DNA of 13,707 bases from Nanopusillaceae archaeon (GCA_038735675.1 JAVYNJ010000016.1:1-13707); one strand, 5' to 3'. Numbered from the stretch's first letter, positions 4,325 through 13,594 are shown. Notes: generated from the sequence alone by a model not told the origin. Translations and numbers: made by a program.

Positions 4325-6073
4325 TTAAGAATAAAAATATATTTTTAATTTTCTATCAAGAGCCTTTAATAACTTATCGTCATCCGATAAGATTACAGAC
4401 AGCCCTTTTGTTAATCCTCCAGTATATAATCTTGAAGTTCTTCCAGAAGCCTGTATATAAGTTTTTATATCCAGTATATTAAGATATATATCACCTTCTA
4501 GTATTTTAAGACTCAGATCTGGATGCTCCTTTAATTTATTTAGAAAATCTTTATTACTTATATATCTAACGACAATTTCTTCTATTTCTCTAATCATATT
4601 TGAATAGGATAACATCCATTTTTCACTCCACGTATTTTCAGAATAAGCTTTAGATAAAGAAATTAAAGCATCAGAAGAAAGTCTCTTTAATTTTTTATTC
4701 AAATTTCTTAACAATTTCTCAATTTTTTTATTTTCTTTTATCAAAGGCTTAATTACTTCTGCCAATATTAAGAGATTTTTTAGATTTTTTTCAAATTTTG
4801 TAATATTTATAGATATTTTAGGAATCCCAACGAATATAGCATATTTTACTCTGGTAGGTAGATCCAGACCCCTCACTAATAATCCTTGATGATGAGCAAT
4901 TCCAATTAAAATATTTATTTCCCCATTTGCAAATTTTTTTATATTTTTTAAAGATTCTTTTTCTTTAGATATTACTAAACCAACCTTAAATCCATTTTCT
5001 GACAAAAATTTAAACAATTCTTCGGCATAATTACTTCCCAAATCTTTACAAACAAATATTAAAATTCCATCTTCCATCTTTTTAACTAAATCTAAAACTA
5101 CTGGTTTAAAATCTTCAAATCCACTAATATAGCAATCTACAATATTTCTCAGTTTACTTGAAGTAGAACCAACAGAAAAATCTAGTAATTCCTTATATAA
5201 TTTAACTCTTTTACCCCTAATTGATCCTGTAGCTGATGATAAAACCAATATGCCATGTTCTTTATTTTTAATTTGAGCTAATTTTTCTTTTAATTCCTTA
5301 TCTAATTCTAAATTTCCCTTTATTTTTTTATCTATTATCTGATTTGAAAATTTTATATCATCTTCACTAAATCCTAAAAGTCTTATTATTCTTTCGATAT
5401 TTTTCGATCCTTTAAAAAAGGCATCAACGTCGTCAACAAATATGATATCAAACTTCTTATCTGATAATATTTCAAAATTTTTAGATATAAATTGATTAGA
5501 AACAATCAATATATCAAATTTTCCATTTTTTATATTTTCTTTTTCCTCCTTGTTTCCGCTATATGCAATAATATTTAGTTTATATCCTGATTTTTCTAAA
5601 AGCTTATTTAATTTTTCAAACATTTGAATTACTAAAACTCTTGTAGGAAGAACAATTAATATTTTGTATCCTTTATTGGCAAAATATAACGAAGATACTA
5701 AAATAAAAGTAGATTTTCCCGTTCCTGTTGGAGCTATCATAGAAAAACTTCTTTTGTTATATAATCTTTTAAACCATGAAATTTGAATAGACCAAGGATC
5801 TGAATTGATCATATTTTTAAAGAAGTTATAAAATTGTTTACTTTCCTCTTTTAAACTATATATTTCTTTGAAATAAAATAATCTATTTTTTTCTAATAAT
5901 ATTTTATAAATATCAAAATCTGATTTTATTAACTCTAATTCCTCTTCTTTAATATCTTTTTCACAAGGTAAAACATTTTCTAATCTTTCAGAAGATATTG
6001 CTTCGTTACAATTAAAACATGACTTTTTTATTATTAAGTTAATGTTCATAACTTTATTAAAACGTTGTACCAT
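4325..6073 (-). CDS. rgy: Reverse gyrase, helicase-like N-terminal half encoded as a separate gene (topoisomerase IA half not present here); the true start is probably the ATG at 6049 (Met9)
   Basis: Motifs appear in reverse-gyrase order: N-terminal Cys cluster SCFNC..LPCEKD, DPWSIQISWFKRL, motif I APTGTGKST, motif II FVDDVDAF, SAT (LSSATGS), motif VI YIQASGRTSRLYTGGLTKGLSV. The ORF ends about 30 residues after motif VI, where the linker to the Toprim domain normally starts. The next gene downstream is tmcA, not a topoisomerase. Confidence 0.88.
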   Translation of the reverse strand: MVQRFNKVMNINLIIKKSCFNCNEAISSERLENVLPCEKDIKEEELELIKSDFDIYKILLEKNRLFYFKEIYSLKEESKQFYNFFKNMINSDPWSIQISWFKRLYNKRSFSMIAPTGTGKSTFILVSSLYFANKGYKILIVLPTRVLVIQMFEKLNKLLEKSGYKLNIIAYSGNKEEKENIKNGKFDILIVSNQFISKNFEILSDKKFDIIFVDDVDAFFKGSKNIERIIRLLGFSEDDIKFSNQIIDKKIKGNLELDKELKEKLAQIKNKEHGILVLSSATGSIRGKRVKLYKELLDFSVGSTSSKLRNIVDCYISGFEDFKPVVLDLVKKMEDGILIFVCKDLGSNYAEELFKFLSENGFKVGLVISKEKESLKNIKKFANGEINILIGIAHHQGLLVRGLDLPTRVKYAIFVGIPKISINITKFEKNLKNLLILAEVIKPLIKENKKIEKLLRNLNKKLKRLSSDALISLSKAYSENTWSEKWMLSYSNMIREIEEIVVRYISNKDFLNKLKEHPDLSLKILEGDIYLNILDIKTYIQASGRTSRLYTGGLTKGLSVILSDDDKLLKALDRKLKIYFYS

Positions 6074-6099: not shown

Positions 6100-6729
6100 A
6101 TGGAAACTAATATAATAGAAGAACTTTTTTCTTTACAAAAAATAGAAAAAAAGCAAGGAAATCTAAAACCAGAAAAAATTTCTCCAAACTTCTTCAAAAA
6201 AATATCTGAAGAAATAAAAAAAATAAAAAAACAAATAGAAAAATCAGACCCAAGTTCTGAAGAAACAAAAAATTTACAAGAAAATTTAAATAATATAAAA
6301 AATCTCCTCAGAGATATTATGATTATTAGAATTACAAAAATATTAAACTGTCTGGTTTTGCAATCAAAAGAAGGATTAAATATAATAAATGAAAAGGAAT
6401 TACAGGAAGAAGAAAAAGTATTCTACAAAATAGCAAATAAAGTAATATCTACATACATAAATGAAGTTGTTAAAAAAATGATAAATGGAGAAACTCCAAA
6501 TGAAGAAGCTTTAATATCAATATTCGAAAATGACGATATTAAAAGTAAATCTAAAGACAAAACAATAATAACAATTAAACAAGATTTTGTTCCAAAGGTC
6601 TTAGCATCTGGAAATAAAACATATGGTCCTATGTTTTATGGCGATATATTAATAATTTCGAAGACAATTGCCGAAAGATTATTAAATACTAAACAAAAAA
6701 TAGCAGAAGAGATTATAAAAAATCAATAA
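6100..6729 (+). CDS. GINS complex subunit, Gins51 (Gins15/Sld5-Psf1-like) replication factor
   Basis: 209 aa. The N-terminal helical A-domain pattern is present: IIEELFSLQ..E....L..ISPNFFKKISEEIKKIKKQI, then NIKNLLRDIMIIRITKIL, then EEEKVFYKIANKVISTYINEV. A short C-terminal B-domain carries KTYGPMFYGDILIISKTIAERLL, comparable to archaeal Gins51 YGPF..GD...LP...A..L. The call rests on pattern matching only. Confidence 0.65.
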   Translation: METNIIEELFSLQKIEKKQGNLKPEKISPNFFKKISEEIKKIKKQIEKSDPSSEETKNLQENLNNIKNLLRDIMIIRITKILNCLVLQSKEGLNIINEKELQEEEKVFYKIANKVISTYINEVVKKMINGETPNEEALISIFENDDIKSKSKDKTIITIKQDFVPKVLASGNKTYGPMFYGDILIISKTIAERLLNTKQKIAEEIIKNQ

Positions 6730-7075: not shown

Positions 7076-7557
7076 TGGATTTTAAAGCCTATATTGAAGC
7101 TTTAGGAAATGATAAAGATACTTTAAAGAAATTTTTGGAAGAGATTAGTAAAAAAATTAAAGAATTTAAAAGCATAAACATAAAAAATATAAAAATAGAA
7201 GAACCTATAGAAAGAGAAATAGAAGAAAGTGGGAAAAAAATGAAACTATGGTCTTCTTATATAGAAATTTTAGCTAGTATAGAAAAATTTGAAGATTTAA
7301 TAGATTTTGTACTTTGGTACTCCCCATCGAAAATTGAAGTATTAGATCTAAAAGAAATTAAGATATTAACCTCTGAGAAAGAGATAAGATTAGGTAAGGA
7401 AAATTTAAATATCCTTTTAAATCAGATATCTTCTAGAATAATTGAAATGACTAGGTTAGTTAATATTTTAATGACTACAAATTCCATATTATACAAAACT
7501 TTAGAAAAATATGCTCCAGGAGAAATTAAAAAATTACAAGATAATCAGCCAAAATAA
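7075..7557 (+). CDS. Hypothetical 160-aa acidic/helical protein, start-stop coupled to rpl44e
   Basis: Its ATG shares the final A of the rpl44e TAA (TAATG at 7073-7077). It has no Cys, TM segment or signal peptide, and I recognise no motif. It occupies the slot normally held by S27e downstream of L44e, but it is not S27e because it lacks a zinc ribbon and is three times longer. Its 3' end overlaps the convergent PAC2 gene by 13 nt. Confidence 0.7.
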   Translation: MDFKAYIEALGNDKDTLKKFLEEISKKIKEFKSINIKNIKIEEPIEREIEESGKKMKLWSSYIEILASIEKFEDLIDFVLWYSPSKIEVLDLKEIKILTSEKEIRLGKENLNILLNQISSRIIEMTRLVNILMTTNSILYKTLEKYAPGEIKKLQDNQPK

Positions 7558-8348
7558 TAAGGCATTTTTTTATCTTTCAGATTTTCTAAATTTACTTTTC
7601 TTTCTGAAATCATTTTTTGAATTTCCAATCTAATTTTTCTTCCTTTTTCTATTAAACTATCTAAATTAACTTCAAAATTATATATTTTAGAAAGCAAATC
7701 CAATATTTTTGCTGCACCCAAATAACCATAAATTTGATTTGAATAATAAGTCTCAACCAATAATATATATGCGGGGATTTTATAGTAATTAGATAAACTA
7801 ACAAAAAGACCAGACATTCCAACAACATTATTTTTTACAAAATTTTCAATTTTTTCCTTTATCTTTTTTGTTATCTTATTTTTATCAAAATATAAATTAC
7901 TAGCTATGAAAACTTTCGGATTTTCTGGTTCAATTTCTAGGCCTAAACCTCCAATAGAGACTATATGATCTGCCTTCAGCTTTTTAATCATTCTAAGTAT
8001 TGAAAAAGTTAAATTGTATCTATCTTCTAATGATATACCTACATCTTCTAAAATTCCCGGTTGCAAATCTCCATACAATACTAAAAAGTTTTTATTCTTA
8101 TTTTTAAAATAATAAAGATTTATAAGATACTGCTTAAAAACTATTCCTTCTTTATTAGAGAAAGAAACATCAGGAAAAGCTTTAGATACTATTACTGCTA
8201 TTTTTTTCGCTTTATATCTTTTTATTATTGTTTTACCAACTATTTTTGCTACATTTCCCATACCACCTCCCAAAGAATATATTAAAATTGGTTTTTTTAT
8301 CTTTTTTAGTATTTTATTATTTACAAAAATTCTTACCATTTTTATCAT
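7545..8348 (-). CDS. PAC2-family protein (archaeal proteasome-assembly-chaperone-like, COG1938 type)
   Basis: 267 aa. The pattern KKPILIYSLGGGMGNVAKIVGKTII ... FLVLYGDLQP ... ADHIVSIGGLG fits the PAC2 fold signature (G-x-G-x-vG near the N-terminus, then gd-qP, then lgG). Its position directly downstream of aIF2alpha-Nop10, with an ATGA overlap onto nop10, matches the conserved archaeal neighbourhood. Confidence 0.7.
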   Translation of the reverse strand: MIKMVRIFVNNKILKKIKKPILIYSLGGGMGNVAKIVGKTIIKRYKAKKIAVIVSKAFPDVSFSNKEGIVFKQYLINLYYFKNKNKNFLVLYGDLQPGILEDVGISLEDRYNLTFSILRMIKKLKADHIVSIGGLGLEIEPENPKVFIASNLYFDKNKITKKIKEKIENFVKNNVVGMSGLFVSLSNYYKIPAYILLVETYYSNQIYGYLGAAKILDLLSKIYNFEVNLDSLIEKGRKIRLEIQKMISERKVNLENLKDKKMPYYFG

Positions 8349-9307: not shown

Positions 9308-10147
9308 TTACTTCTCTATTCTTACTTGGCCTAAAAATACTCTTCTTACAATATTATAATTAAATTTAATTTCCACATAAAGATTTGGAGTTTCAACTAC
9401 ACCATCGAGAGGAATATTTATTTGATTTAAAGAATTTATTCTTAAGTCTGTTTCATTTCTAAGAATTTTTCCTATATATTTGATTTCATATAAACTTTTA
9501 AATTTATCTATATTCTCTCTAATAAAGCAGTCTTTCTCAACTTTTTGATAAGTTAAAACATACTTATCTCCTTCAGATTCTATTATTAAATATATTCTTA
9601 AATAAAATTTTTTGTCTATTTCATTATAATAAGATTCCGCTCTTTCAATTCTTATTATTCCATCAACGGGATATATATTACTAACTTTTAATTCGCATAT
9701 TCTGTCTTTATAAAAACATCCTTCTAATCCTATTATGGAATAGTAATTATAACAAAAGTTTACAATAACATTTTCATAGTCTGAAATAAAATATTCTGGA
9801 TTTTTGAAATAAATAAATCCTTCCTTAGGTAATTCTATCTCGTAAATCGTATAAATTCCTTCTTCTATTTTATTAGTACATCTACTTCCCGTAAGATTAA
9901 AAGCTAAAGATCTAAAAGAAGCTAAACAAAGACTCCAATTTAAATTTTGATCAAACAAAAATATTTTTACACCAACTCTATAGGGAAAATCTCTTTTTAT
10001 TGAGGGCGGAATGTTTGTTGGTGTTATATATAAACTATATTCTTTTTGTAATTTTTCATATTCTGAAGTTCCCGAAAAACAACTAAAAAATAAAAAATTA
10101 AACAATATAATAGAAAAGACATAAAAAAACAAAATTATACTTCTCAT
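9308..10147 (-). CDS. Uncharacterised secreted or membrane-anchored Cys-containing protein (279 aa), last gene of the envelope operon
   Basis: The N-terminus MRSIILFFYVFSIILFNFLFFSC-FSG has a charged n-region and a long hydrophobic h-region ending in S-C. The mature part is beta-rich and Tyr/Asn/Ile-rich, with six further Cys and N-x-S/T sequons (NWS, NLT, NET). Its ATG overlaps the upstream gene's stop (TAATG at 10145-10149). I recognise no family. Confidence 0.75.
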   Translation of the reverse strand: MRSIILFFYVFSIILFNFLFFSCFSGTSEYEKLQKEYSLYITPTNIPPSIKRDFPYRVGVKIFLFDQNLNWSLCLASFRSLAFNLTGSRCTNKIEEGIYTIYEIELPKEGFIYFKNPEYFISDYENVIVNFCYNYYSIIGLEGCFYKDRICELKVSNIYPVDGIIRIERAESYYNEIDKKFYLRIYLIIESEGDKYVLTYQKVEKDCFIRENIDKFKSLYEIKYIGKILRNETDLRINSLNQINIPLDGVVETPNLYVEIKFNYNIVRRVFLGQVRIEK

Positions 10148-11076
10148 TACACTTGTCTAACTATTTGTATATTATACATATTTCTCATTGAACACGTATA
10201 TTTTAAAACTAAGTCAACTTCCATATATACTCCGGTTTCTGATGCAAATAGTTGATAAATTTCGTTATTTTTTGTTAAATCTATAGAACATCTTAATGTT
10301 GCTGGCAAAGTATTTATGGTTGTAGGTGTACAAGATATTCCATCTATTTTCTTTCCTGCAATAACAGCATTAACTATAATTTCATTTCCAATTCTAAGTG
10401 GTGGTTGTCTTCTATATCCTTCAAAACATTTTTCAGCATCAATTATATCTAAATAAAATATAGCACTTTTTGATGTTATATCTATTTTTATTTTATCAGA
10501 TTTAGGTACAATTGGAGAAGATGTATAAGATATTAAAGTTTCTAATGATGATGTAGATCCTGTTGGAGGTTTTCTTAAAGTTGCGGGTATTTTTATTTTT
10601 GTAAATAATTCGGAAATATTATATTCTATTACTATATTTACATTGTTAATAGCCTCTAATCCAGCCGGAATTTTAAGTTCATATTTTATAGATTCTTTCT
10701 CCATTGGAAATACATTTTTCTTTATTGAATCGTATTCTGCCTCTTCTAATTCACATGATCCTAAAACTTCTCCAGGCATTACAGAAGATAAAATTCTATA
10801 GTTTATAGTATATGTTTTACCTTCTCCAGTATATATATATGACTTACAAATAACAGGATATGTATTGTTAAAACCTTCAACTGTGTTATATTCTATAAAA
10901 GTGTCTAAATCTGATAGCTCTACCGAAATTTTTCCTGGTTTGTTTACAGCCCATTCTGCTTTTAATAATTTTTCTTCTCTTTTTGCTTCAGAAGTTATTG
11001 GACAACTTTGAAATAATATTGTAGGTAATGCTAAAAGAAATGCTAATATTAAACTAAATACTGTCCTCTTCATCAT
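10147..11076 (-). CDS. Uncharacterised secreted or membrane-anchored Cys-containing protein (309 aa)
   Basis: The N-terminus MMKRTVFSLILAFLLALPTILFQSC-PIT is a Sec-type signal (KR, hydrophobic core) ending in S-C. The mature part has six further Cys, a PPTGSTSS linker-like stretch and N-x-S/T sequons (NNT, NIS). I recognise no family. Confidence 0.75.
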   Translation of the reverse strand: MMKRTVFSLILAFLLALPTILFQSCPITSEAKREEKLLKAEWAVNKPGKISVELSDLDTFIEYNTVEGFNNTYPVICKSYIYTGEGKTYTINYRILSSVMPGEVLGSCELEEAEYDSIKKNVFPMEKESIKYELKIPAGLEAINNVNIVIEYNISELFTKIKIPATLRKPPTGSTSSLETLISYTSSPIVPKSDKIKIDITSKSAIFYLDIIDAEKCFEGYRRQPPLRIGNEIIVNAVIAGKKIDGISCTPTTINTLPATLRCSIDLTKNNEIYQLFASETGVYMEVDLVLKYTCSMRNMYNIQIVRQV

Positions 11077-11116
11077 ACTTTTTTTATGTTTTTAAAAATT
11101 TTTAAATAAATAAACT

Positions 11117-13594
11117 TTATATATTATTCACTTTCATAACAATATATTCTAGATCTGTAACAACATTTTTTTCTATTCCATAAGTTGCTTTAGCAGTTAT
11201 TATAACCTCTGAATATTCCACAAATTCTACAAATGAAATTACTATTGGTATAAAAAAGAAAAACTTATCAAAATTTTCATTTTTGTAAAGTATTATATAT
11301 TTGTTTCTATCAAAATCGTCAGGTATTTTTTTAAAATTAACTTTACAATTTATTTTTTCTATATATTCTTTACAAGTAAGATCGTAAATTGCGGTTTGTA
11401 TTCCTTTAAATTGTGGATCTAACGAAATTTTTATATGATTTGGATTATATTTTATTTCGATTTCAAAATCTGAAATATCATATAGTTCATTTATATTTTT
11501 AAGAGATATATAAATAGTATCACTAACCTCATTAAGATTTCTAAATCTTATCACTGGATATTCTGAAAGAACACCAAGTCTAAGAATATTTATTTTTGGA
11601 AAATCTAAAAATCCATCAAAATATCCTAAATCATATTCTCTCTTATCTAATTTTAAATATGCATATATATCTTTGTTTTCATAAAAAGAATTTATTAGAA
11701 CGCTTTCGTCAACAACCAAAAATTTATATATGGTTCTCGTCGTTATATTAGAAATTAAAACTAAAAAATTGTTCTGAAAATAAAGCTTTTTATATAAGAT
11801 TTCTTCACAATTTGAAATATTTATATAAATCGTTGGAACAGTACATCTTATATTTTGAATACCATATTCAGGCACTTGATTATTCCTATAAAAATTATTT
11901 TTTTCATCAAAAAAGAATTCTGTATTATCATATATTACTTTTCTTCCAAGCTCTAATAAAGAATTTGAAGTTAAACAATCTAATTTAAATATTGGTCTTG
12001 TTAAACAATAAGCATTAAAATACATTTTAATATTACTGTTTATAGGAAGAGAAGATTTTATAGCATAATATAAATATTTCGTAGATAACTTTATTGTCGA
12101 ATCGGAATCTGAATAAAATGTATAATCTATTGGAAGTTTATTGATATCCTCTATTTCAAACATATATCTATATGAATCTCTAGCAGCTACAGATTCTGCT
12201 CTACTTTCTATATATGCAAGTTCTGGATTCTCTATGATAAACTTAATTCTATTTATCGTTTCTTCTATTGTTTTTCTTATTCCTGAGATTTGTTCTTCTG
12301 CAGACAAAGAAATTTTTTGTGGACAAAAAGAAGGCATAAAAATACAAATAGAATAAGAAAAAGTTGTATAAAACAGGATATAAATTACTATCATGATAAT
12401 ACTACCTAGAATTGCTCCTTGAACAATCCAAGATAGGGTTCTTTTGCTAACTAAACCAATAATAATTACTAAAATTACAAAGATTGTTAAAACTGTTAAA
12501 ATATTCCCAGAAACAAACAGTAAATATAATAAAATAATGTAAGATACAAAAGTTATTATAGAAACAATCGGTAGTTTTTCTCCTTTCTTTTTTATCTCTT
12601 TAAATTTTTCTTTAAATTTTACTCTCCCTTTTATTTTTTTAGATAACTGTGTTGGTTGTTTAGGGGGTTGAGATGGTGGAGTAGGTTGTTTTGGGGGTTG
12701 AGATATTTTTCTTTGCTGTTGTTGAGATAACTGTGTGGGTTTTTCGGGAGTTTGAGACGGTGGAGCGGGTTGTTTTGGGGGTTGAGATATTTTTCTTTGC
12801 TGTTGTTGATTTAACGTTTTTTCTTGTGGTTGTAGACCTTCTAGTGAGAAAAAAAAATCTAAATTAACACTTTCTTCTTTTTCCAATTTTTTTTCTTCTA
12901 TAAATCCATGCGAAATTAAAAATTCTATTCTACTAAGTGCTGCCTCGCACCTTTGATATTCATTTTCTTTATCTTTTAGCAAAGGCGCCAAAAAGCCATT
13001 ATATACTCTCGAATCTAATATATAAAGTAAAGTCTTTAAAAGATTTGCTAGTTCTGAATTTATTATAAAAAGTTTATCAAATACATTTTTTACGTAATTC
13101 TCTCCTAGATTTTTTAACTTCATTGCTCTTATAAAATCGTTATAAGCTTCTCCTATTACATTGTATAGTTCTTTAAACTTCTTTTTAATTTCCTCCAATT
13201 CCTTTTCTAATTTTATATAATCAAATCTATATTTTTTCAAATCTTTTTTTATATAATCGTTGTTTTTTATGTACTCTATTAAATATTCTTTGATATGATA
13301 TTTAATAAGAGAAGATTCGCAATTTCTTATAAGAGCAGCAAAATATTCTAGATTATATAAGATCTTATCATAATATTGTAGATTTTCTTTATTTTGCTTT
13401 AATTGTTTTAAATAATTTAAAATTTCTTCTCTTACAATATTATACCTTTTTATAGCTTCATTAAGCGCTTTTCCATACTCCACTAAATACTCAATTCGCT
13501 TTTCTAATTTTTCTTTCCTTCTTAAAAGTTCTTCAGGGGATTCTTCTTTTTTCGATTGATCTTCTAATTTATTTGGTAAGTCCATTTCATTCAT
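11117..13594 (-). CDS. Uncharacterised 825-aa multidomain membrane protein: N-terminal coiled-coil region, P/Q-rich tandem repeat, three TM helices, C-terminal Cys-paired ectodomain
   Basis: Residues 1-250 are Lys/Glu/Leu-rich heptad-like sequence with no signal peptide. Residues 263-318 are two 28-aa P/Q repeats. A basic cluster KKIKGRVKFKEKFKEIKKKGEK precedes the hydrophobic block at residues 341-420 (about three TM helices, DNA 12335-12574), so positive-inside logic gives N-in, C-out. Residues 421-825 are beta-rich with Cys pairs CLTRPIFKLDC, CTVPTIYINISNC and CKEYIEKINC, plus the sequons NIS and NIT. Its ATG overlaps the stop of an upstream partial ORF (ATGA). Confidence 0.8.
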   Translation of the reverse strand: MNEMDLPNKLEDQSKKEESPEELLRRKEKLEKRIEYLVEYGKALNEAIKRYNIVREEILNYLKQLKQNKENLQYYDKILYNLEYFAALIRNCESSLIKYHIKEYLIEYIKNNDYIKKDLKKYRFDYIKLEKELEEIKKKFKELYNVIGEAYNDFIRAMKLKNLGENYVKNVFDKLFIINSELANLLKTLLYILDSRVYNGFLAPLLKDKENEYQRCEAALSRIEFLISHGFIEEKKLEKEESVNLDFFFSLEGLQPQEKTLNQQQQRKISQPPKQPAPPSQTPEKPTQLSQQQQRKISQPPKQPTPPSQPPKQPTQLSKKIKGRVKFKEKFKEIKKKGEKLPIVSIITFVSYIILLYLLFVSGNILTVLTIFVILVIIIGLVSKRTLSWIVQGAILGSIIMIVIYILFYTTFSYSICIFMPSFCPQKISLSAEEQISGIRKTIEETINRIKFIIENPELAYIESRAESVAARDSYRYMFEIEDINKLPIDYTFYSDSDSTIKLSTKYLYYAIKSSLPINSNIKMYFNAYCLTRPIFKLDCLTSNSLLELGRKVIYDNTEFFFDEKNNFYRNNQVPEYGIQNIRCTVPTIYINISNCEEILYKKLYFQNNFLVLISNITTRTIYKFLVVDESVLINSFYENKDIYAYLKLDKREYDLGYFDGFLDFPKINILRLGVLSEYPVIRFRNLNEVSDTIYISLKNINELYDISDFEIEIKYNPNHIKISLDPQFKGIQTAIYDLTCKEYIEKINCKVNFKKIPDDFDRNKYIILYKNENFDKFFFFIPIVISFVEFVEYSEVIITAKATYGIEKNVVTDLEYIVMKVNNI
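12641..12808 (-). repeat. In-frame tandem duplication, 2 x 84 nt (2 x 28 aa, QQQQRKISQPPKQP[A/T]PPSQ[T/P]P[E/K][K/Q]PTQLS) inside the 825-aa gene
   Basis: The units are 12641-12724 and 12725-12808. Hand alignment gives 9 mismatches in 84 nt, and the last 39 nt of each plus-strand unit are identical. Mismatches cluster in the other half and change 4 codons. This is the only conspicuously G+C-enriched stretch besides the tRNA. Confidence 0.9.

Follow-up and report, generated by a model that had tools for sequence, protein, structure and literature searches.

The window analyzed here is a stretch of 13,707 nucleotides from a Nanopusillaceae archaeon (GCA_038735675.1 JAVYNJ010000016.1:1-13707), and the subject of this work is a group of four genes at one end of it, p350, p825, p309, and p279, which encode predicted cell-envelope proteins. 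The source is the genome of a tiny symbiotic archaeon (Nanoarchaeota, DPANN). The window has a G+C content of ~24% and carries the archaeal housekeeping genes TmcA, GINS, ribosomal protein L44e, PAC2, Nop10, and eIF2-alpha, and its identical or near-identical proteins come, according to their annotation, from metagenome-assembled genomes (MAGs) of Nanopusillaceae and Nanoarchaeales. A sequence-only reading of this DNA had proposed that p279, p309, and p825 share one juxtamembrane cysteine motif followed by exactly six more cysteines, and explained it either by a non-canonical lipobox-like cleavage and lipidation, which would also release the p825 ectodomain, or by intermolecular disulfides among the three proteins. 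The four genes are arranged as follows.

9308-10147, minus strand: p279, open reading frame (ORF)
10147-11076, minus strand: p309, ORF
11117-13594, minus strand: p825, predicted polytopic membrane protein, in which a coiled-coil N-domain in the cytoplasm and a PQ-rich linker are followed by three transmembrane (TM) helices and a conserved beta-rich ectodomain
13591-13707, minus strand: 3' end of p350 (last 38 codons and stop, from translation); the rest of the gene is outside the window

The stop codon of p309 overlaps the start ATG of p279 (TAATG), and the stop TGA of p350 overlaps the ATG of p825 (ATGA, 13591-13594). Because these overlaps join the genes, with p350 as the fourth, the set p350/p825/p309/p279 is read as a four-gene operon. 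The full-length p350 gene is found at L002:6472-7524, in a related strain; p350 is N-terminally anchored and has six conserved ectodomain cysteines and no juxtamembrane cysteine in six of six lineages. The syntenic cluster of Candidatus Nanoclepta minutus (L001) came from a genome scan, and the clusters L005, L006, L008, L012, L013, and L014 from the genomic contexts of distant p825 homologs. Wherever the contig is long enough, which is the case in Nanoclepta, L002, L006, L012, and L014, the gene order is Pelota, p350, p825 homolog, lipoprotein genes, and eIF2-alpha; L005, L008, and L013 hold partial clusters. Nanoclepta was the sole match among the scanned contigs of the genome collection, and the metagenome contigs scanned with the p309 and p279 profiles gave no relatives. 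The cluster is not described in the Nanobdella cell-surface preprint or in the Nanoarchaeota single-cell paper. It appears to be restricted to Nanoarchaeota and, judged by gene order and protein anatomy, is a conserved operon of predicted cell-envelope proteins peculiar to this phylum.

The two downstream genes, p309 and p279, have the following parts, which were delimited by sequence anatomy (signal peptides) and family alignment (signal peptides and mature domains).

11005-11076, minus strand: p309 signal peptide, residues 1-24, MMKRTVFSLILAFLLALPTILFQS
11002-11004, minus strand: Cys25 (TGT) of the p309 lipobox, predicted lipid-modification site and residue +1 of the mature protein
10150-11001, minus strand: p309 mature domain, six cysteines
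10082-10147, minus strand: p279 signal peptide, residues 1-22, MRSIILFFYVFSIILFNFLFFS
10079-10081, minus strand: Cys23 (TGT) of the p279 lipobox, predicted lipid-modification site and residue +1 of the mature protein
9311-10078, minus strand: p279 mature domain, six cysteines

The positions of these two cysteines and of Cys424 of p825 (12323-12325) had been given correctly, all three codons being TGT, and for p279 and p309 the count of exactly six more cysteines also holds. Both N-termini consist of a K/R-containing n-region and a hydrophobic core followed by [L/F]-x-S-Cys, and both proteins are of Sec type, the twin-arginine motif being absent. Among the family members confirmed by hidden Markov model searches (p309, n = 11; p279, n = 12), the lipobox cysteine is invariant down to ~20% identity and is always found at residues 18-25, every member has K or R among its first 7 residues, and the residue at position -1 is S, A, or G in the p309 family and S or G in the p279 family. 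The distance of the cysteine from the h-region is constant, whereas other parts of the signal peptide drift. Close homologs of both proteins (58-83% identity) retain all seven cysteines. In more distant loci the box reads LLGC and FLGC (L006), AAGC (both L008 proteins), or FLSGC (the L013 member of the p279 family), the last of which fits the strict consensus.

The boxes of the window, F-Q-S-C in p309 and F-F-S-C in p279, lie inside the loose PROSITE PS51257 rule, which requires K or R in the first 7 residues, Cys at 15-35, no charge in the six residues ahead of the box, and [AGS] at -1. Run on 113 six-frame ORFs from ~97 kb of Nanoarchaeota DNA, this rule matched nine, all of them genes of this slot, and left the remaining 104 unmatched. 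The box is not very non-canonical, as had been proposed, nor is it unusual for such archaea: p279 and p309 fit the loose rule and SignalP-predicted lipoproteins have already been reported as prevalent in Euryarchaeota and DPANN (PMC12462473); because of that prevalence, predicted lipoproteins in a DPANN archaeon are to be expected. On this anatomy and conservation, p309 and p279 are predicted Sec lipoproteins that belong to the known archaeal lipobox class.

The slot between the p825 homolog and eIF2-alpha can also hold lipobox proteins of other kinds. In L013 (1502-3421) one such protein, with the box LLSGC, stands beside the true p279 homolog, and in L014 (6337-9408) there are three, with the boxes FAGC, LAGC, and LAGC, which have no detectable homology to p309 or p279; LLSGC and the two LAGC boxes also match the strict consensus. 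These four (L013_345 and the three of L014) were considered as p309/p279 family members and, having no detectable homology, are counted only as lipobox proteins of the same slot. A lipoprotein position therefore appears to be kept even where the protein family is not (L013, L014). In L012, the signal-peptide DNA of two adjacent lipoproteins (6263-6337 and 7236-7307) is nearly identical along the ~50 nt that lead to the Cys codon of the lipobox, with LPIFLLGTTLFYFSSC in both, and their mature parts are unrelated, which suggests that the signal peptide was shared through gene conversion or duplication. Two other origins of the N-termini were rejected. A class III (pilin-like) signal does not apply to p279 and p309, in which no [KR]-[GA] cleavage motif precedes the hydrophobic stretch. 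The three proteins are not paralogs with an inherited motif, since hhalign comparison of the p279, p309, and p825 families found no homology past the p279 and p309 signal peptides, the similarity of p309 to p279 being limited to the signal peptide and its cysteine.

The membrane and outer parts of p825 are organized differently.

12368-12574, minus strand: TM1 to TM3 of p825, residues ~341-409 (hydropathy scan)
12323-12346, minus strand: juxtamembrane pair C417-x6-C424 of p825 (codons 12344-46 and 12323-25; family alignment), no lipobox
11120-12322, minus strand: residues 425-825 of p825, the ectodomain, which contains three conserved Cys pairs of short range

Hydropathy and the positive-inside distribution place the lysine-rich flank and the SKRTLS loop in the cytoplasm and the C-terminal domain outside, so p825 is predicted to be an N-in, C-out protein. 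Cys424 is preceded by a 337-residue cytoplasmic domain and three TM helices, which is not the position that follows an N-terminal signal peptide, and it lies ~15 residues past the end of the 21-residue core of TM3 rather than exactly at the membrane exit, as had been stated. A second cysteine, C417, seven residues ahead of C424 within the same hydrophobic stretch, had been overlooked, so that the cysteine count of p825 is not one plus six: it is two plus six, with two additional cytoplasmic cysteines. The boxes at this position are S-F-C in the window and, elsewhere, Y-L-C, A-L-C, and G-Y-C (Nanoclepta and P0018). The proposal of one motif for three proteins fails at position -1, which is a small Ser in p279 (F-S-C) and p309 (Q-S-C) and Phe in p825 (Leu or Tyr in its orthologs), a difference that the wording "aromatic/S-Cys" masks.

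Among 1.84 billion representative proteins, a profile search brought up no more than 18 relatives of p825. Twelve of these are short forms (408-456 residues), in which the ectodomain is preserved behind a single anchor helix at the N-terminus. TM3 of p825 aligns with this sole anchor helix. The two juxtamembrane cysteines (C-x5-6-C) always come as a pair and are confined to the long-form clade (the window, P0015, P0016, P0018, and Nanoclepta), and both are absent from all 12 short forms, whose N-terminal anchor is Cys-free. Alignment of orthologs, which had been suggested as a check, thus confirms an invariant cysteine position in the p279 and p309 families and confines that of p825 to the long-form clade. 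The six ectodomain cysteines are invariant or nearly so in 17 sequences; in p825 they form the three pairs already proposed, C530/C540 (C-x9-C), C584/C596 (C-x11-C), and C741/C750 (C-x8-C). The total is eight cysteines in 14 of the 16 other family members, and a "GEC...IPxC" pair of the short forms is missing in the long forms, which have the juxtamembrane pair in its place. C417 and C424 probably form a fourth short-range, membrane-proximal disulfide. The simplest reading of these alignments is a helix-anchored p825 ectodomain for which cleavage at C424 is not expected; p825 is not taken for a lipobox protein because position -1 is F, L, or Y, Cys424 lies behind three helices, and the pair is absent in the short forms.

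The fold of the p825 ectodomain was modeled with AF2 (AlphaFold2). On the deeper alignment A6 the model had a predicted local distance difference test (pLDDT) of 84.5 and a predicted TM-score (pTM) of 0.77, while the shallow alignment A4 gave an unusable model (pLDDT 38.8). The A6 model has a beta-rich ectodomain and a long helix across TM3. Foldseek searches of this model against PDB and BFVD returned generic beta-sandwich matches only, with TM-scores <0.2, and on these scores the assignment of the ectodomain as "adhesin" or "viral" was rejected. Pfam and NCBIfam scans assigned p279, p309, and p825 to no family, and PDB sequences contained no match at E <= 1 to the profile of any of the three families.

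The ectodomains are rich in cysteine, with a density of 1.9% versus 0.77% in the cytoplasmic proteins of the window (2.5x; Fisher p = 0.005). The six-cysteine pattern is not invariant: p309 homologs have 4 or 6 cysteines after the box and p279 homologs 4, 6, or 8, an even number in every complete sequence. C77 and C108 of p309 are clade-specific and jointly absent in five lineages, and C144 and C151 of p279 (C-x6-C) are likewise clade-specific and jointly absent in two, L006 and L008. Because cysteines are gained and lost in pairs, disulfides in the ectodomains are supported, if indirectly, and we infer that the remaining, even-numbered cysteines of all four proteins form intradomain disulfides. 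The "1+6" count would then correspond to one lipobox cysteine and three disulfides in p279 and p309, with four disulfides predicted in p825. The numerical match among the three proteins has no functional meaning, and three disulfides per ectodomain is plausible for this lineage.

The explanation that we regard as likely is an operon with two Sec lipoproteins, p309 and p279, in which p825 is helix-anchored and unprocessed and the remaining cysteines are engaged in disulfides. The K/R n-region, the hydrophobic core of ~17-20 residues, and the lipobox [L/F]-[F/Q/L]-S-Cys of p309 and p279 would direct Sec export. By analogy with Haloferax volcanii, the Cys thiol would receive a thioether-linked membrane lipid and the signal peptide would then be removed in front of the cysteine, leaving the disulfide-stabilized domain hanging from the outer membrane face by its lipidated N-terminal Cys. 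TM3, which corresponds to the anchor helix of the short homologs, would hold the p825 ectodomain. Archaeal lipobox proteins bear thioether-linked archaeol, which is added by AliA/AliB (Hong et al., Nat Commun 2025, PMC12462473), and no Lgt or Lsp homologs exist in archaea (PMC12462473). Lipobox-like processing is well supported for p279 and p309, which have a signal peptide of the signal peptidase II type, an invariant Cys, G, A, or S at -1, and canonical boxes in deeper lineages, and is not supported for p825.

Several points weigh against this explanation. Lipidation and cleavage of such proteins are not known biochemically from any nanoarchaeon, and cultivated Nanoarchaeota are not known to make their own lipids, so that the lipid donor would have to be host-derived. 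One member of the p825 family, P0029, has an odd number of cysteines (13), and the disulfide pairings proposed here are drawn from covariation and spacing. In the window, the boxes depart from the strict consensus [LVI]-[ASTVI]-[GAS]-C (PMC12462473), with F in place of [L/V/I] at -3 and F or Q in place of [A/S/T/V/I] at -2. AliA (arCOG02177) is present in DPANN with gaps, some genomes have predicted lipoproteins yet no AliA or AliB, and the archaeal lipoprotein signal peptidase is unidentified (PMC12462473).

Some of these points favor the alternative that p279 and p309 are unlipidated, being either uncleaved signal anchors or signal peptidase I substrates whose cysteine serves a p279-p309 heterodimer disulfide or metal binding. 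The off-consensus residues at -3 and -2 and the AliA gaps in DPANN agree with it, and no lipoprotein machinery is known from Nanoarchaeota. The conservation pattern of the lipobox Cys and of the -1 residue speaks against it, as does the fixed distance of the cysteine from the h-region in an otherwise drifting signal peptide, and F at -3 with S at -1 makes a poor signal peptidase I site. We consider this alternative unlikely.

A still less probable explanation is that the membrane-proximal cysteines of the three proteins tie a covalent complex by intermolecular disulfides at the membrane surface, the second option of the sequence-only reading. Each lipoprotein has an odd total of cysteines, which leaves one without an intramolecular partner, and the genes, which are predicted to be co-transcribed, are syntenic across many lineages. 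Against such a complex, the invariant G/A/S at -1 and the canonical LAGC/LSGC boxes of deeper lineages are signatures of lipidation, in which the lipoprotein Cys would be used in a thioether; the two juxtamembrane cysteines of p825 can pair with each other, and the total stays at eight in nearly all members of its family; the lipoprotein Cys persists though most p825 homologs, and p350 always, are without a juxtamembrane Cys; and L014 has three lipobox proteins, an odd number.

That all three proteins share one non-canonical lipobox-like step, with the p825 ectodomain cut at Cys424 and re-anchored by a lipid, has very little left in its favor. Cys424 does follow a hydrophobic helix and precedes a Pro, as in p309 (C-P), and it is conserved in the five long-form sequences. 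The residue at -1 is F, L, or Y and never small, the cysteine is internal and lies behind three TM helices, a second conserved Cys is found 5-6 residues upstream, and the 12 short homologs carry the ectodomain on a Cys-free N-terminal helix; in addition, we know of no case of internal lipobox cleavage. Equally remote is plain coincidence, in which Cys-rich secreted proteins of a thermophile would have chance cysteines near a helix end: the "1+6" count is not kept beyond the closest relatives, p279, p309, and p825 are not homologous to one another, and the resemblance of p825 is indeed superficial, but the lipobox Cys is invariant in all p279 and p309 homologs and 0/104 other ORFs matched the lipobox rule. 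The shared cysteine motif is thus only partly real and there is no new processing system: neither a single motif common to the three proteins nor the release of the p825 ectodomain holds.

The cytoplasmic part of p825 differs among strains and includes two further features.

12776-13539, minus strand: p825 cytoplasmic N-domain, residues ~19-273, strain-variable (blastn against L002 and L004; protein alignments)
12641-12809, minus strand: 84-bp tandem repeat, two copies, 90% match (Tandem Repeats Finder)

The N-domain has no DNA similarity to the corresponding region of L002 (7576-8297) or to L004, strains that are 99.4-99.5% identical to the window over the flanking 4.5-6.4 kb, and similarity returns (89%) at the first ~18 codons of p825. 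By these comparisons, the predicted coiled-coil N-domain is an allelic cassette, of which P0017 represents a third allele. The 84-bp repeat, which encodes the PQ-rich linker QQQQRKISQPPKQPxPPSQxPxxPTQLS, borders the variable cassette on its inner side and could serve as a site of recombination. Many MAG contigs end at the p825 gene. P0015 (537 aa, from a Nanopusillaceae MAG) is a complete p825 ortholog that starts ~45 residues before TM1; because it is complete without a long cytoplasmic domain, the N-domain would be dispensable or separately encoded in some close relatives.

Other observations concern p350 and neighboring genes. At the N-terminus of p350, a conserved [K/R]-x-Q directly precedes the hydrophobic helix in five of six lineages (MKNQLMVVG, MRGQTMVVG, MKSQSTLVG, RYQTMAVG, and ARNQTIIA), and the L008 protein begins instead with MVGIFF. 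The [K/R]-x-Q element resembles the Q(+1) of class III signal peptides, with a residue at -1 that is not always small. Two genes upstream of the operon there is a conserved multi-TM protein of ~328 aa (L002:4448-5434), with orthologs at L001:4877-5857, L006:2919-3920, and L012:1937-2917, which has sub-threshold matches to Peptidase_A24 and Arc_PepC and the motifs D-x-x-K-K-x-V-S-D and A-I-G-D-L; its probable identity is that of a divergent class III (prepilin) signal peptidase. The window also encodes a stand-alone helicase half of reverse gyrase (4325-6073, minus strand; 582 aa; zf_Rg, DEAD, and Helicase_C), which has no topoisomerase domain, the split arrangement known from Nanoarchaeum equitans. 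The copy of this gene in strain L003 (5055-6779) is divided between two calls of 162 and 394 aa, probably through a frameshift or a fault in the assembly. The PAC2-family gene, intact in the window (267 aa; 7545-8348, minus strand), appears as two ORFs of 133 and 129 aa in the 99.5%-identical strain L004 (4836-5629), which points to a frameshift or a sequencing error.

A wider reading, which we regard as doubtful, makes p350, p825, p309, and p279 a Nanoarchaeota-restricted trans-envelope module of two helix-anchored and two lipid-anchored, disulfide-stapled beta-rich proteins. If it were true, p309 and p279 would need host-derived ether lipid and a machinery so far not known from the phylum, and the p825 cassette, which was gained in one clade and is swapped between 99.4%-identical strains, would link a variable partner inside the cell to a complex at the surface, such as one that contacts the host or anchors the S-layer. 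In a sub-variant of this reading, C417/C424 of p825 would be a redox or lipid-modification site and not a structural disulfide. The only ectodomain of the operon that was modeled, that of p825, has no recognizable fold relative.

On the likelier explanation, with two lipoproteins and a helix-anchored p825, p279 and p309 provide Nanoarchaeota with a pair of specific, conserved candidates for lipoproteins. Members in culture, such as Nanopusillus/Acidilobus, are not known to make their own lipids, and because of this p279 and p309 would offer a clean test case for AliA-type or other lipidation with host lipids. The F at -3 in the proteins of the window also brings into question how much variation the archaeal lipobox tolerates. 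The phylum-restricted four-gene envelope operon is a candidate component of the poorly understood nanoarchaeal cell surface, and it is, together with the strain-variable p825 cassette, at least as interesting as the cysteine motif.

Among known systems, the p825 ectodomain is beta-rich, multi-domain, and predicted to be extracellular like the multi-beta-sandwich adhesins that were its top Foldseek matches (ClfB/SdrD-type MSCRAMMs and integrin alpha legs), but with TM-scores of 0.07-0.17 and identity <11% there is no real fold match, and homology or an adhesin function is unsupported. p825 resembles the archaeal surface proteins with an N-in/C-out signal anchor, as its ectodomain would sit on a TM helix and its 12 short homologs and p350 are N-terminally anchored; unlike plain signal-anchor proteins, its long-form clade adds two TM helices, a variable coiled-coil domain, and the C-x5-6-C pair. 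p279 and p309 resemble the bacterial lipoproteins processed by Lgt/Lsp in satisfying the PROSITE PS51257 rule, and would differ from them in that the anchor would be an ether lipid. By prediction they belong with the archaeal lipobox lipoproteins, such as the Sec/Tat lipoproteins of Haloferax volcanii lipidated by AliA/AliB, a class to which p825 does not belong. Like these, p279 and p309 have a signal peptide closed by a lipobox, in which Cys +1 is invariant and the -1 residue is small. They differ in the F at position -3 and the F or Q at position -2, in that their lipidation is a prediction, and in a probable dependence of this organism on the lipids of its host.

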